Shown one piece after another: positions 9,497 through 36,018 of a stretch of DNA of 51,339 nucleotides (within the stretch, counting starts at the first letter, position 1; every line of letters starts with the position of its first letter). The translations under genes and the position numbers were made by a program. The notes beneath the pieces are model-generated. The model saw nothing but the letters and a program-made list of their open reading frames with translations, was not told the origin of the DNA and did not search any database. Source of the DNA: Clostridiaceae bacterium (GTDB lineage: Bacteria > Bacillota > Clostridia > Saccharofermentanales > UBA5734); NCBI GenBank assembly GCA_012520975.1, contig JAAYNF010000019.1, positions 1 through 51,339 on the forward strand, written 5' to 3'.

Positions 9497-9811
9497 TTAT
9501 GATTTTTTCTCCGGCAGCAGACCTTCCGACTCCAATCGGCTCAGAACCCGCTTGTATCCGTCGGCTCCATAAGTCAGAGCACGATTAACCCGACTGATCG
9601 TGGCTGTGCTGATGCCCGTTGCTTCGCAAATCTCAGCGTATGTATTGCCTCGCCTTAACATAATGGCCACTTGCAATCGTTGAGCAAGCGACTTTATTTC
9701 GGCAATTGTGCAGATATCTTCAAAGAACGCATAGCACTCTTCAATATCCTGTAAAGACAAAACAGCTGCAAACAGAAGATCCGTGGCGGGATCTTTTAAT
9801 TTGTTATTCAT
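9497..9811 (-). CDS. YerC/YecD family TrpR-related HTH protein
   Basis: ECYAFFEDICTIAEIKSLAQRLQVA...TGISTATISRVNRALTYG. Confidence 0.9.
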   Translation of the reverse strand: MNNKLKDPATDLLFAAVLSLQDIEECYAFFEDICTIAEIKSLAQRLQVAIMLRRGNTYAEICEATGISTATISRVNRALTYGADGYKRVLSRLESEGLLPEKKS

Positions 9812-9922: not shown

Positions 9923-10936
9923 TCAGTTTGTTCCGGATGCCGCGGATGTCTGATATCGCGCACTTTTGCCGTAACGGACGACCTGCAGTCTGATCTGATC
10001 GGCTTCGGCACGGTTGATCAGATCGGCAACAATCGTGTCCCAAAACGGCTTTGAACTGTTGGCAGGAATGATCACGATCAGGCGTTTTTGAGAAATCATG
10101 CCGGCATTTATTTGAATGTCCACATCCTTTTTCCGGTATGAGGCACCGGAAAATTCGGCCAGCCGCCCGATCATCCGTTCCAGATGTTGTTCCGTATACC
10201 GCTGATTTTGATAGGTCGGGGCGGTCAGGTCGATGCTCTTAATCATCACCGCTTCACCTTGCTCAAAGCGTGCAATCACCGGAAAATCATCCGGAAGATT
10301 AGCGCCAAAAAGGGTGCGAAAGCGTTTCCCGCGACTGAAATTATCCAACATCCAAATTTCAGAGGCCTCTGCATCATTTGTTTCTTCCTGACGCCCCAAC
10401 CACAATGGAACAACCGACCACGTCGATTTTTCGAATGTCATGATCGGTGTTTTTAACTTATAAGACAAACACAACCAAAGTTGATTTTTTTTAAGCTTCC
10501 AGTCGAGAAAGAGTTTTCGTTCACCGACACGCGCGCATAATTCCCGCCTGTCCCCCATCAATCGGGTCAGCCAATCGTTCAAACGACGGTGAATTGCCGG
10601 TCCGGCCAAAGCGGTTGAAGTGAAATCCAATGTAAGATCTGCCAACAGTCCTTCGCCTTTCAGATCCTGCCAAATAGCGGATAATTCCTGCTCGGTTTGT
10701 GCTTCTATCGGAAGATCCCGCTCGCCGGCCGACACAGAGAAGATATCGTGCAAGCGTCCCGCCGGTGTGAGCAATGCCAATTCGGCAGCCGTACGATCCA
10801 ACGCTCCTTTTATTATGATTTCGGCCTCGATGCACCGGATGCCAACAATCATGCTGGCGGTCAACAGCAGAATAAAAGGCATAACCACGGCGGCTTCCAA
10901 GCTAAGCCCCCCTCGTTTATTGCCGGGGTACTTCAT
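9923..10936 (-). CDS. TadE-like minor pilin with C-terminal CdiA-CT(EC869)-like nuclease-fold domain
   Basis: KRG|GLSLEAAVVMP prepilin motif (E+5) plus TM; C-terminal LPDDFPVIARF..GEAVMIKSIDL..MISQKRLIVIIPAN; ATGA overlap with the upstream gene. Confidence 0.75.
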   Translation of the reverse strand: MKYPGNKRGGLSLEAAVVMPFILLLTASMIVGIRCIEAEIIIKGALDRTAAELALLTPAGRLHDIFSVSAGERDLPIEAQTEQELSAIWQDLKGEGLLADLTLDFTSTALAGPAIHRRLNDWLTRLMGDRRELCARVGERKLFLDWKLKKNQLWLCLSYKLKTPIMTFEKSTWSVVPLWLGRQEETNDAEASEIWMLDNFSRGKRFRTLFGANLPDDFPVIARFEQGEAVMIKSIDLTAPTYQNQRYTEQHLERMIGRLAEFSGASYRKKDVDIQINAGMISQKRLIVIIPANSSKPFWDTIVADLINRAEADQIRLQVVRYGKSARYQTSAASGTN

Positions 10937-12357
10937 TGGTATGACCCGCAAAGCCGGTACTCTTTGTGTCGGAACTTGGTCGAGACCCAAAGTCCGGTAT
11001 AGCTTGTCTCGGGAAACATGCGATTGATCAACCGACCGATTCGTTCCAAAAGCGTGGCCCGAGGAATTAATAAAAGCATCAGCCGTAAATAATCCAGATA
11101 ATAAAGACCGACTTGGGTCGAGGATTTCCCCGGCCAGATGGCCACGGAACGACCGGCCTTCAGCTCGGCATAATCAGACATACCGCCATGGATTGCTTTT
11201 CCCATGATCAAAAGAATGAGGATCAAATTTGGATCGATGGCCGCCGCACCCGAACTCAACACCAATAACGACGCGGAGATGGTGGCAGCGGCGGATTGTA
11301 ATTCTTGATACTGCTTCGAATCGGTCAGTATCCTGAGCAAATGAATGGCGATTCTTAGTCCGGTCAGCAAGGTTTTTGCGGCTGTTCCGGCTGATTTGGG
11401 ATTGTCTTTACCGGTCAGAATTTGTTCAACTTCCAATTGACGATCGGCAGGAAATGAGTAGAAAGTCTTGCCCGTCAACGTTTTAATCGCCCTTTGATCC
11501 ATATAATCAACTCCTGAGCGAAAATAACCCGCTATATACTCAATCAAGCACAATTTTTCATAGACAGGAACCGTATTAAACGTAACGAGCTGATCCAAAG
11601 TATCCCCTAGGCGCGTTAACGTAACGGGGTCAAGCCAACCGGATTTTTGCACCGCCGCGTCGATCGTGTCTGAATTTTTGCATCCGGCATATTCAACAGC
11701 GTACCGTCGATAGGTATGTTCCGCTTGGGCAACGATTTTGTTTTCCAAATCCTTGGCGTCTTGCCCAAATACGTAACCAGCTGCTTCTCGCAGTTCCTGA
11801 ACCGGCAAATCAGCAAAAATTTGTCTGAACAGATCGGAAAAACCTTTTTCACCCAACGTATCAATGACCATCTTCCCTCCTAAATCCGGTTTTTGTTCCG
11901 CCGGCAGTGCGCTGGTGGTCTTCAACGCTTGATTGAGGGGGATCAACATACCCTCACGGCTGTCGGAAATCCGTGTTAACAACGTTTGCACATAAACCGC
12001 TGGCAAACGTCCCTTCATATGCCGAATGATCTGATGGCCAAGAACATCCGGTTGACTTAATGGGGAAACCGGCATGACAACTGGTTCAAGATTTCGCAAA
12101 GAAGGTGGCAAAATGGAACTAAAAACAGTGGAATCCACACCATCGGCGGAGAAAGCAAACAAGCCGAATTCAAGGAGGTTCCGCTCATAGTTAGCCAAAC
12201 TGGAGGCAATGAGCGCGTCCAACGCCCGTACCACGGCATGTTCCGCTGCTCGTATTTGTGCCGCTTGGGCCAATGTGCCGATAAGAAGGATTACAGCGCT
12301 CAGAACCAAACATAAAAAAACAGATAATCCGCCACGTTTAGACAAATGTCCACTCAT
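10933..12357 (-). CDS. TadG-like pilus protein (DUF5702-like)
   Basis: KRG|GLSVFLCLVL N-terminus, SLANYERNLLEFGLFA, EYIAGYF, EVEQILTGK, YLDYLRLMLL. Confidence 0.75.
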   Translation of the reverse strand: MSGHLSKRGGLSVFLCLVLSAVILLIGTLAQAAQIRAAEHAVVRALDALIASSLANYERNLLEFGLFAFSADGVDSTVFSSILPPSLRNLEPVVMPVSPLSQPDVLGHQIIRHMKGRLPAVYVQTLLTRISDSREGMLIPLNQALKTTSALPAEQKPDLGGKMVIDTLGEKGFSDLFRQIFADLPVQELREAAGYVFGQDAKDLENKIVAQAEHTYRRYAVEYAGCKNSDTIDAAVQKSGWLDPVTLTRLGDTLDQLVTFNTVPVYEKLCLIEYIAGYFRSGVDYMDQRAIKTLTGKTFYSFPADRQLEVEQILTGKDNPKSAGTAAKTLLTGLRIAIHLLRILTDSKQYQELQSAAATISASLLVLSSGAAAIDPNLILILLIMGKAIHGGMSDYAELKAGRSVAIWPGKSSTQVGLYYLDYLRLMLLLIPRATLLERIGRLINRMFPETSYTGLWVSTKFRHKEYRLCGSYQ

Positions 12358-12668
12358 GGTTCCGCTACCCTTTCACCGGATTGTCCTGAAAAAGACGAGA
12401 GCAGCAGACGGCCATCGTCAACAATCAAATCGACGATTTCAATAAGGTTTTGCGGCGACGTAATCAAGCACATGGTCCGCCTTGAACCGATCCCTATCGT
12501 TTGCACATGGTAAAGGCGGTCCCGGCGGTTGGCATCTTTTAGTGCCCGGACCTCCAACCGAGTCGATTGACGCACATCGACATAGGCCGGCAAAGCGGTC
12601 TGCGCGAAACCCAACCAAGTGCCTATTACCAATGGAACCACCAGAGCCGCTTCCAGAGAAAAAGCCAT
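12354..12668 (-). CDS. Small TadE-like pilin
   Basis: MAFSLEAALVVP hydrophobic pilin helix; GGAGGT RBS; C-terminal SPQNLIEIVDL; ATGA overlap with the next gene. Confidence 0.65.
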   Translation of the reverse strand: MAFSLEAALVVPLVIGTWLGFAQTALPAYVDVRQSTRLEVRALKDANRRDRLYHVQTIGIGSRRTMCLITSPQNLIEIVDLIVDDGRLLLSSFSGQSGERVAEP

Positions 12669-12746
12669 AAAAACACCTCCCGGCTTATGTTAGCGGTCAG
12701 GTGTTCAGAATGACTTTCCAATCAGGCAACAAAATTCGTCAAGTGC

Positions 12747-33514: not shown

Positions 33515-35947
33515 TCAGGGACAGGCCGGGCGAATCACCCAGCCGGTCTTGCTTACACTTAAATGGATTGCCCCCTGCCGGTCGGTCCGCCAGATCCGAC
33601 AACCGTGCTCTGACAACCTTTGCAAAGTTTCTTTTGAAGGATGCCCATAAAAATTGGGCCCAACACTGATCACAGCATCTCGAGGCTGAATCTGCTCCAA
33701 CATGGCGGTGGTTGTTGCGTGCTTCGAGCCGTGGTGGGCAACCTTGAGGACATCGACCGGATCAAGCAGACCGTGCTGGACCAGATTGTTTTCCATGTCG
33801 CCTGTGCAATCACCGGTCAACAAGAGCGAAAGTCCGGCCAGATCAGCACGCAAAACCAATGAATGGTCATTGGCATCGTAGTCCGGCTTGATTATCCTTT
33901 GCGGGCTGTATTGTTGATCAAGAACCTGCAGTCCGATCAGAGGGCCCAGCGCTATTGTATCATTTCCGATCAATTCTGACACTTGAATCTGATGCGAGGA
34001 CGCCGTTTCCAATAAAACCCCCAACCGGTCACCCCTTTGACTTTGACCGCGGTCAAGCAGCATTGCGAGCTCCCGGCCGGACAACAACAGATTACGGCCT
34101 CGGCCGGCTGTGATAACATCGATCAACCCGCCAACATGATCATCATGGCCATGGGTGGCAATCAGCACATCAATCTGATCAATGCCCAAACAATCCAGTG
34201 CCGGTAGAATAACCTGCCAGCCCTGTCCGGGCTTGCCGCCGTCAACCAGCATGGTTTCGCCAAAACGTGTTGTGAGTAAGACGGCATCACCTTGACCTAC
34301 ATCCAAAAACCAAACTTGGACAAGCGGCGCCCGGTGCCAATTCAACACGGCGATCAGCAACCAGAAAACAATAAGCGGCATCCGGATCCGTTTGAGCAAT
34401 CGGAGTCGGCGTCCCCTAAGAATATCAATTGATCGCAACCGACAAACCAAAACACCGGCAAACAGCAGCCAAATCATCCAAAATACCGGATTAATCAATT
34501 CTTTCGGGATCCTCAGGATGGCTTTGTTTCCCATGAAACCGGCCAGATCGATCAACAGATCGGTAAAAAATCCCAGCGGCGAAACCAGCACACGTCCCAA
34601 ATCCGGAAATATCGGCAAAAGAAGGCCGGCCACCGGCAAAACAACAATTGCCAGATAGCAGATTGCGGTGGTTATCAGTGCAGCCGGCGGATTGCCAACA
34701 AGGCCGGCCAATGACAACTGCTGATTAATGATCGCCAATAGCGGTAATAAGCAGGTTTGAATTACCAAACCGGAAGCAAGGGGAGCAAGCAGAAAGGTGG
34801 GTAAAAATGGAAATCTATCCTTAAGGTGGTTCTGCATAGGTTCGGCCAGAGCCACCAATGCAGCGGTTGCCAAAAAGGATAACCAGAAGCCTTCGGCCCA
34901 AATCGCAAAAGGCTGAACACCGAGAATGAGGATGACCGCCAGAGCCAGCGAACTCGCGGCATCACGCGGCCGATGCAACAGACCTCCGGAAAGCGCGCAA
35001 CCGGACATGACGATGGCTCGCGATACGGCTGTGTGCCAACCGGTTAAAAATCCATATCCGACCAAAAGAAGCAAGAGAAAAACCAACCGTTTTCGTCTCC
35101 CCATTCCACCATGGTGCAGCACACGGCCGACCGGCAGCAAAAGCAGGGACACATGCATACCCGAAACACTCATTAAATGAGCCAGCCCGGAGCGGCGAAA
35201 ATCAGATTGAACCTGTTGCGATAAGCCTTGTTTTTCGCCCAGCAGGACGGCGCTGAGGACATTGGCCTGTTGCTCCGGCAAAAGCCGATCAATCAAGCTT
35301 GTGAGGGTTTCCCTCCCCGATCGGCCGAGAACAACCGGTTTGGTCCACGCCGGTGCAGGACCTACAATGGATACCGACGCTTTCCCGACCGGCTTTGCTT
35401 TGATCAAGATTCCCCGGGATTTGAGCCACGCCGCCTCATCAAAACCCCCGGGATTACGTTGCCCCCGCGGCAGTTCGTAATATACCGCTACTTGAATCTG
35501 CTCACCATAGCTCAAACCGGCGCCTTTTCTTGGATAGGACAGAAGTACCCGTGTGCCGTCTGATCGGCGCACAACAGCCTGATCAAGATATTCTCCTGTT
35601 TTGGGAACTTCGGCCACGGTTCCGGTCAGGATCCGGCTCTGGCCGTCGGCTGCGGCACCGAGCCGCATCGCACGTTCCAACATCAAACCGGTCCGCCAAG
35701 TTCCCAATAAAAATAACAACGGCAGAAACCACATAAGCCAGTCCGGCTGGAGACGCACCGTAAGAAAAAACAACAGGCACATCAACAAACAAACCAACAG
35801 CGCCAAAGGCAATCGTCCAATAGCAAAGGCAACACAGATGCCGGAAACAGTTGCCAAGGCCAGTGGCGGCAAGGGCCTGGCAAAAACTCGTGAATATCTG
35901 AGGGCCATGAACCGCATCCTTTTCCAGTTTGCTGTCGTGTCAACCAA
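33515..35947 (-). CDS. comEC: DNA internalization competence protein ComEC/Rec2
   Basis: RNPGGFD, GLAHLMSVSGMH, FWLSFLAT, FLDVGQGDA, THGHDDHVGG, KVAHHGS, YGHP, RTDRQG; start uncertain. Confidence 0.95.
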   Translation of the reverse strand: MVDTTANWKRMRFMALRYSRVFARPLPPLALATVSGICVAFAIGRLPLALLVCLLMCLLFFLTVRLQPDWLMWFLPLLFLLGTWRTGLMLERAMRLGAAADGQSRILTGTVAEVPKTGEYLDQAVVRRSDGTRVLLSYPRKGAGLSYGEQIQVAVYYELPRGQRNPGGFDEAAWLKSRGILIKAKPVGKASVSIVGPAPAWTKPVVLGRSGRETLTSLIDRLLPEQQANVLSAVLLGEKQGLSQQVQSDFRRSGLAHLMSVSGMHVSLLLLPVGRVLHHGGMGRRKRLVFLLLLLVGYGFLTGWHTAVSRAIVMSGCALSGGLLHRPRDAASSLALAVILILGVQPFAIWAEGFWLSFLATAALVALAEPMQNHLKDRFPFLPTFLLAPLASGLVIQTCLLPLLAIINQQLSLAGLVGNPPAALITTAICYLAIVVLPVAGLLLPIFPDLGRVLVSPLGFFTDLLIDLAGFMGNKAILRIPKELINPVFWMIWLLFAGVLVCRLRSIDILRGRRLRLLKRIRMPLIVFWLLIAVLNWHRAPLVQVWFLDVGQGDAVLLTTRFGETMLVDGGKPGQGWQVILPALDCLGIDQIDVLIATHGHDDHVGGLIDVITAGRGRNLLLSGRELAMLLDRGQSQRGDRLGVLLETASSHQIQVSELIGNDTIALGPLIGLQVLDQQYSPQRIIKPDYDANDHSLVLRADLAGLSLLLTGDCTGDMENNLVQHGLLDPVDVLKVAHHGSKHATTTAMLEQIQPRDAVISVGPNFYGHPSKETLQRLSEHGCRIWRTDRQGAIHLSVSKTGWVIRPACP

Positions 35948-36018
35948 ACAGCGGAATCAGTTTGCCTGAAACCGATGGCGTTGTCCGGCCCGGTCCAGCG
36001 ACAAATTGGAACAATTGG

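Follow-up and report, generated by a model that had tools for sequence, protein, structure and literature searches.

Why does a pilin end in the fold of a toxin nuclease? The question is raised by a 337-aa protein (P0001; 9923..10936, minus strand) encoded in the window, which is the whole 51,339-nt stretch of Clostridiaceae DNA analysed here. A sequence-only reading of this stretch had described a Tad minor pilin tipped with a domain like the EC869-type CDI toxins, apparently dead as a nuclease and perhaps serving as a DNA receptor for transformation. EC869-type CdiA-CTs are Zn-dependent DNase toxins carried on CdiA with a CdiI immunity protein (sections of PMC9086364).

A Tad pilin with a toxin-family domain

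P0001 begins with a prepilin leader of class III, MKYPGNKRG (10910..10936, minus strand), with cleavage predicted after G9 (KRG/GLSLE). All features of the class III signal are present, namely Gly before the cleavage site, Glu at +5 past G9 and a following hydrophobic helix, and E14 and P20 are near-invariant across 65 homologs. The Pfam TadE profile does not match P0001 and does match its relatives P0033 and P0050. Residues 10-182 (10391..10909, minus strand) are modeled as a pilin domain with a long α1 helix and a β-sheet. When the AlphaFold model was compared in VIA, this domain matched PilX, PilB and PilV at Z 4.9-5.7, which is below trust and amid unrelated rows.

The C-terminal part (residues 187-323; 9968..10378, minus strand) has the fold of the EC869/YPIII CdiA-CT nucleases. 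PF21111 matches residues 211-319 (9980-10306) with an E-value of 7.7e-8 and 33.1 bits, over the cut-off of 27. When a profile of 65 sequences (P0001 and 64 of the 65 matches from its homolog search) was compared with solved structures, the CdiA-CT toxins 4G6U (EC869 o11/TA271; E 1.6e-6) and 4ZQU (YPIII; E 2e-6) were the sole sequence matches with E < 0.01. The AlphaFold model of P0001 (pLDDT 86) matches 4G6U with a Foldseek E of 2.5e-7, and its residues 187-323 superpose on 4G6U with a VIA Z of 15.6 and an rmsd of 1.9 Å over 132 residues; Z to 4ZQU is 13.5. Window domain and toxins share the fold and the Lys211 position at ~21% identity, and the β-hairpin 265-276 is retained in the model. The toxin-family nuclease fold that had been claimed is thus borne out by both profile and structure comparison.

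The gene is the last of three. Gene 1 (12354..12668, minus strand) encodes a TadE-like small pilin of 104 aa, assigned by a weak PF07811 match (E 0.11) and its conserved position. Gene 2 (10933..12357, minus strand) encodes a large pilin-like DUF5702 protein of 474 aa (PF18960, E 1.3e-10), which would be the TadG-like backbone of a tip complex. The ATG of P0001 overlaps the stop codon of the DUF5702 gene, which lies directly 5′ of the domain gene in relatives' loci as well, and the order TadE, DUF5702, nuclease-fold pilin is kept across the family. Three relatives have a full operon of TadZ-like, TadA, TadB, TadC, TadE, DUF5702, domain pilin, A24 peptidase and DUF6382-FHA genes, with Flp1 detected in two of them. 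In the host order the trio is detached from the Tad machine. The host genome's own machine, on contig C136, comprises a TadZ-like protein (a positional label), TadA, a fused TadB/C, Flp1 and DUF6382-FHA, and contig C139 carries a second tad locus (L009:6552-12534, plus strand) that starts with a Ser/Thr-kinase fusion and includes a TadA-like ATPase and CpaB. A TadA orthologue is found in 59 of 60 domain-bearing genomes. From the prepilin signal, the trio synteny and the Tad machine in the genome, the assignment as a Tad minor pilin stands, and P0001 is very probably a Tad tip pilin.

Tad tips are described as trimers of pilins with variable domains (PMC12075869, sections on tip trimers). As in those of Myxococcus (KilL/M/N; TadE/F/G), a small, a large and a medium-sized minor pilin with C-terminal add-ons lie side by side here, and in both cases they can be encoded apart from the machine (same sections of PMC12075869). 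The window trio differs from the Myxococcus tips in its monoderm host, its DUF5702 large pilin, the nuclease fold on its third pilin and a link to com genes rather than to predation. Those sections of PMC12075869 make no mention of Clostridia. tad operons are widespread in Clostridia according to a part of PMC3244431, and the part of PMC11680825 that treats the TANB77 Tad cluster gives it as CpaB-type and mentions no nuclease.

PF21111 occurs in 55 of 400 Clostridia genomes with one copy each, one further genome being unscorable. Of the other 54 matches, one is an RHS toxin; the remaining 53 start like TadE pilins, as judged from a profile match or a prepilin motif. Outside, in a phylum-wide sample, it occurs in 2 of 400 genomes, one with two RHS toxins and one with a weak match. 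P0001 itself has no CdiA, RHS or other toxin carrier, its N-terminus being a prepilin. In a quick unrooted tree (104 rows and 144 columns, including 25 database proteins drawn at random and another 8), nine toxin domains fall on one side of a branch with SH-aLRT 87, and the pilin domains group mostly by host family. This pattern fits one old capture, without proving it. To judge from these sequences, a single capture from an RHS/CDI toxin is probable, at a time when the domain was still active. The proposed domestication is upheld as old and conserved by the single-copy family, the pilin fusions and the grouping by host family.

DUF5702 is more widespread (112/400 genomes). Twenty DUF5702 loci from genomes without a PF21111 match were inspected: seven have the domain, four a degenerate copy, eight none, and one is cut off. 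Hence this Tad type does not always need the domain. Five of the eight domain-less loci have a tandem His-Cys3 repeat and three have no tip domain. Because the domain is replaced or absent at such loci, the tip appears exchangeable and sometimes dispensable. In L073:7417-7722, L077:7838-8140, L079:5171-5467, L088:5060-5368 and L089:4762-5058, the third pilin ends in this zinc-finger-like tandem repeat, for which there is no Pfam family over cut-off and no named family in the Atlas. Two of the repeat tips give sub-threshold Ada_Zn_binding matches. In the PDB, the zinc-finger-like tip matches PHD fingers by sequence (E 9e-4), which probably reflects the spacing of its cysteines.

The gene following P0001 is yerC of the Trp-repressor family (9497..9811, minus strand; PF01371, E 7.8e-31) rather than an immunity gene; it starts 111 bp past the P0001 stop, with no separate ORF of at least 50 aa between. 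Relatives' domain genes are followed by yerC, secA or an A24 peptidase gene, and in some by what we take, from sequence likeness, to be a nucleoside phosphorylase gene or gyrB. The RHS toxins at L035 and L104 precede homologous genes of 184 and 172 aa that are 49% identical (L035:917-1471, minus strand; L104:1073-1591, plus strand), have no Pfam match and form a probable unnamed immunity family. Homologs of three toxin-downstream proteins were found neither at pilin loci nor in the host genome, and PF07262 was not found in an immunity search whose control was also silent. With yerC next, no intervening ORF of that size and no toxin-downstream homologs, the reported absence of an immunity gene agrees with the wider survey.

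Active site and cleft across the family

The catalytic set of EC869 CdiA-CT is E177/D198/S209/K211 (sections of PMC9086364). A222, M231 and K233 of P0001 were placed at the last three positions by sequence alignment to 4G6U (SEQRES offset 5). E177 lies just outside the aligned stretch, and R207 was placed there by helix register and by six RHS toxins with Glu at this position. The set reads R207/A222/M231/K233 in P0001, only the Lys being retained. R207 (10316..10318, minus strand), at the catalytic Glu177 position, is Arg in 62 of 65 homologs and Glu in 6 of 6 RHS toxins. A222 (10271..10273, minus strand), at the metal-binding Asp198 position, is Ala in 57, Ser in 6, Gly in 1 and Asn in 1 of 65. 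M231 and K233 (10238..10246, minus strand) occupy the Ser209 and Lys211 positions. Glu at 207 or Asp at 222 occurs in none of the 65 aligned sequences. The Ala and Met codons had correctly been located at 10271-10273 and 10244-10246, and the claimed loss of both catalytic carboxylates, Glu to R207 and Asp to A222, is confirmed by alignment and register. Near the site, no other acidic column is conserved above 80% except D236 of SxDLT, which is common to toxins. The nuclease domain of P0001 is very likely catalytically dead.

P0001 thus has the toxin fold on a pilin, with E/D/S changed to R/A/M and no immunity gene. It works like a CDI toxin but is not one.

In a wider set, 223 of 263 pilin domains have lost both carboxylates, and 11 of 263 have both carboxylates but no Lys. 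One pilin, that of locus L062, retains the full E/D/S/K set. When it was used as a query, 45 proteins with 44 distinct domains were obtained and 44/44 were catalytically complete; the intact domains form one clade with support of 100 in the quick unrooted tree. The expectation that homologs would show consistent catalytic loss therefore holds for most of the family, with neither carboxylate in 223/263, and fails for this clade. The intact clade is a candidate active pilus-borne DNase, and its domains may nick DNA. Its members (L062:3368-4606, minus strand, and P0203-P0247) are TadE pilins of ~407 aa, and at L062 the domain gene is directly followed by an A24 peptidase gene, not an immunity gene.

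The charge of the cleft was counted over positions 202, 207, 222 and 233. P0001 has +3, 219/263 disarmed pilin domains have +2 or +3, six toxins and the 44 intact pilins have 0, and 25/263 domains have 0 or −1. By residue content the old metal site has turned into a pocket of basic character, such as one would expect for anion binding. The toxins, too, have R202 without exception, which makes it ancestral rather than an adaptation. Over the whole domain, 143 of 253 carry a negative net charge; values run from −20 to +15 around a median of −1, and P0001 has +3. Columns at least 90% conserved number 18/51 in the N-terminal half of the domain vs 1/82 in the pilin body, and the former is therefore under selection.

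An upstream element common to tad and com genes

Upstream regions of tad genes and comEA contain TTGTCG-N4 units, repeated in tandem and helically phased with a −10-like box. In the window, the trio is preceded by two TTGNNG units with a 10-bp period (12727..12742, minus strand); a putative −10 box follows after 34 bp (12687-12692). A weaker copy of the element lies 5′ of comEC (35999..36014, minus strand). A matrix was trained on 33 tad upstream regions from other genomes only, and 1787 gene windows of the host genome were scanned for two units and a generic −10 at any spacing of 20-47 bp. Among the 1787, the ranks were 3 for comEA, 4 for the second tad operon, 7 for the trio, 15 for the tad machine, 67 for comM-dprA, 97 for comEC and 212 for recA, where the two-unit form had been fixed after the host's own promoters were viewed. 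A gene that we take to be recJ-like ranks 22. The three com genes gave a rank-product p of 1.6e-4, and five loci, two misses included, gave 3e-3; none of 40 column-permuted matrices did as well.

The element is poorly ranked upstream of radC (1298), recD2-comFC (1626) and comFC (1721), and the host's prepilin peptidase is in the same missed group (1298-1721). The element is missing at the host's PilC (rank 1207) and PilA (rank 1025) loci. With a three-unit model without −10, the host's tad and com genes were not ranked. When gaps were limited to those of other genomes, comM-dprA fell to 675 and comEA to 23. A model with 33-35 bp gaps gave better ranks and was partly chosen from the host's own promoters; the any-gap ranks are used here.

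A strict pattern was also scanned in 24 genomes. Among the 13 genomes of the host order, it is found 5′ of comM in 7, recA in 6, comEA in 4 and comEC in 3, and 6 genomes have it 5′ of a tad operon as well as a com operon, counts in which five tad sites were assigned by coordinates and three sites were not fetched. G034, a relative assembled as a single contig, has 11 sites vs 1 in the reversed control. Those of the trio, tad machine and comEA had been viewed beforehand; the new ones precede flp1-DUF6382, a weak A24 peptidase, comM-dprA, recA, rnhB-UPF0102, ireB-ruvX, parA and one large unnamed protein, and comEC is missed. In families f28, f23 and f11, and in one of two f29 genomes, the pattern does not exceed the control; two of three f18 genomes lack it. 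The host genome has two strict sites only, neither at tad nor com genes, its own copies being more degenerate. Taken together, these upstream sequences make it rather probable that tad and com genes are co-regulated in the host order.

Other genes also carry the element. The top-scoring copy in the host genome precedes a 379-aa ORF (C93:15022-16161, plus strand), presumably TnpB-like from its sequence, and the second-best, one of the two strict matches, a 301-aa lipoprotein-like ORF (C18:762-1667, minus strand). A multicopy family of ~255 aa without a Pfam match lies behind the element at L171:2170-2940 (minus strand), with paralogs in G386, G158, G185, G212, G340 and G363. In the comEA upstream regions L108-L119 (families f18, f68 and f71), repeated GGGAAAT words replace the TTGTCG units, which suggests a variant or a second regulator.

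The Spo0A box is TGNCGAA (in a part of PMC7643835), and the element unit TTGTCGAA contains such a 0A box (TGTCGAA). A 204-aa protein of the host genome matches 1LQ1, the DNA-binding domain of Spo0A (E 2.4e-7), and retains the VERxIR helix. It is divergent, Pfam recognizing part of Spo0A_C and no receiver domain. A divergent Spo0A_C protein is present in 5/5 genomes, over the cut-off in three. SpoIVA was found in G125 but not in the host genome, G034, G238 or G172. The Spo0A-like gene (L136:1231-1845, plus strand, on C101) has one TTGTCGAA ~130 bp upstream. We infer, as a lead, that this protein may act on the tandem element. The likeness to the Spo0A system lies in the box within the unit and in a protein with a Spo0A DNA-binding domain; the differences lie in the divergence of that protein, in SpoIVA not being found and in the com and tad genes as targets.

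Two other candidates were rejected. The canonical LexA box has one match in the window, which is chance level. A WYL regulator has the element in G212, G340 and probably G238, but no homolog among the host's ORFs. A WYL-domain regulator is encoded in a two-gene unit behind the element in family f3 (L213:1051-2127, plus strand; L220:323-1369, minus strand).

Function of the tip domain

An intact comEC (33515..35947, minus strand; TIGR00361 over cut-off) lies beside holA in the window, and its presence there had been taken to favor a DNA receptor. It is 22.5 kb from the P0001 gene, is tied to the trio solely by the common upstream element, and occurs in 79/80 Clostridia genomes, including 33/34 without any pilus ATPase. 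Being distant and near-universal, comEC alone is uninformative on a role in uptake, and that argument fails. comEA discriminates better: it is found in 24/25 domain-bearing genomes without PilB, 19/21 with a PilB-size ATPase and 14/34 without a pilus ATPase, where frames >600 aa were left out and the genomes, as in the other counts, are related, so that the counts are not independent. In the single-contig 1.8-Mb relatives G034 and G316, this TadA is the only PF00437 ATPase, and comEA and comEC are retained. On the other hand, a PilB type IVa pilus, which could take up DNA, is also present in 35/60 domain genomes.

The host genome has the complete uptake set of comEA, comEC, comFC (comFC-like, below cut-off) and dprA. 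It also has three PilT-size ATPases, PilC and a PilA-like gene; PilB or PilM was not found in this 96% complete assembly of 176 contigs. At L010, L013 and L014 (contigs C88, C35 and C163), there are three PilC genes, four small pilin-like genes and cassettes with PilT-size ATPases, with no PilB found. Two of these cassettes adjoin a putative gene that we take to be transglutaminase-like, together with a membrane-anchored repeat protein.

We give slightly better than an even chance to P0001 being a non-cutting DNA-binding tip of a Tad competence pilus, a reading drawn from sequence comparisons. The DNA-receptor idea gains support from the element common to comEA, comEC, comM-dprA and recA, and from Tad providing the only pilus ATPase in G034 and G316, which retain comEA and comEC. 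On this reading, prepilin peptidase would cleave P0001 after G9, and the trio pilins would form, on an Flp1 filament, a tip of the TadE/F/G type. The tad and com genes would be induced jointly by one activator, for which the divergent Spo0A-like protein is the likeliest candidate. The old cleft, freed of acids and lined by R202, R207 and K233, would grip the phosphate backbone without cutting, and pilus retraction would pass the DNA to ComEA and ComEC.

The domain could instead be a structural or protein-binding tip module, such as a cap or a partner of DUF5702, that makes no DNA contact even in a pilus used for competence. Columns of conserved W, R, G, P, S and Y also occur in the toxins and could be fold residues, and many of the domains are strongly acidic. 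Lineages have lost different catalytic residues, and Asp and the basic residue are mostly alternatives: 199 domains have just the basic residue, 29 just Asp, 8 both and 25 neither. Its contact might be the retained hairpin 265-276, which in the toxin binds CdiI (sections of PMC9086364). A purely structural role, however, has no need of the basic pocket made by Glu-to-Arg change and Asp loss in 196/261 domains, and the 44/44 complete catalytic sets imply a nucleic-acid substrate at the tip in the intact clade; we consider this module unlikely. To the same degree unlikely is an adhesin that binds polyanions such as extracellular DNA or teichoic acid, with Tad serving attachment or biofilm under a stationary-phase or stress regulator held in common with com genes. 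Adhesion is the usual role of Tad (a part of PMC6668835), and the element resembles the box of a global regulator (a part of PMC7643835). It also lies 5′ of parA/parB, ireB-ruvX, the WYL pair, the ~255-aa family and the TnpB-like ORF, and the PilB pili of 35/60 domain genomes fit an adhesin too. Against it, the recurrent core of the element is tad with comEA, comEC, comM-dprA and recA, the host's PilC and PilA loci lack it, and G034 and G316 have no other pilus ATPase.

Retained activity is less probable still. That P0001 still cuts DNA at the cell surface with a rearranged site, be it for uptake or as a nutrient, would be in line with the variability of PD-(D/E)xK sites (sections of PMC9086364) and with the intact clade, where a predicted-active nuclease sits on this pilin without an immunity gene (an A24 peptidase gene follows at L062). 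This is quite improbable for P0001, which like 223/263 relatives has neither carboxylate and whose only conserved acid nearby is the toxin-common D236. A contact-dependent antibacterial toxin on the Tad pilus is hardly credible. The toxin-family fold and the killing mediated by Myxococcus Kil tips on Tad pili (sections of PMC12075869) speak for it, but the catalytic residues are gone, and the gene is single-copy, follows host family in the tree and shows no tip polymorphism within genomes. The true RHS toxins have the conserved downstream gene of 172-184 aa, which has no homolog at pilin loci or in the host genome.

Returning to the proposed DNA-binding tip, a counterpart of such a pilus is known from Micrococcus luteus, where tad genes are required for transformation (a part of PMC4322843). 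That organism is also Gram-positive, with separate tad clusters in two tad islands, as the host genome has two tad loci with the element; Tad-dependent transformation is experimental there and deduced from sequence here, and the cited part of PMC4322843 names no DNA receptor. In the ComP, FimT, ComZ and ComG systems too, a minor or tip pilin has been proposed to catch DNA (see PMC4906244, PMC8897410, PMC6561018, PMC12153270 and PMC12040237). These pilins belong to type IVa or Com pili, unlike the Tad-type P0001. No DNA receptor for a Tad pilus is named in the literature examined, largely open-access papers without supplements, in which this pilin-nuclease fusion and a tad/com regulon are likewise undescribed. 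The known DNA-catching pilins hold DNA by basic patches on pilin-related domains and are not known to use a co-opted nuclease site.

A broader picture can be offered tentatively, at less than an even chance. Many Clostridia would take up DNA by a Tad pilus whose receptor is a toxin DNase captured once, active in one clade, a phosphate-binding clamp in most and swapped for a tandem zinc finger elsewhere, with a repurposed Spo0A-like activator governing all competence genes through tandem 0A-like boxes in non-sporulating lineages. For the transformability of Clostridia without Com or type IVa pili, a candidate receptor, a candidate regulon with its promoter element and a candidate activator are thereby offered. 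As an example of a toxin nuclease that was domesticated on a surface filament the family is clear-cut, and nature supplies predicted-active as well as disarmed versions for comparison. If the proposal is true, anaerobes from digesters and the rumen that are now hard to transform could become amenable to genetic work once the regulon is induced.
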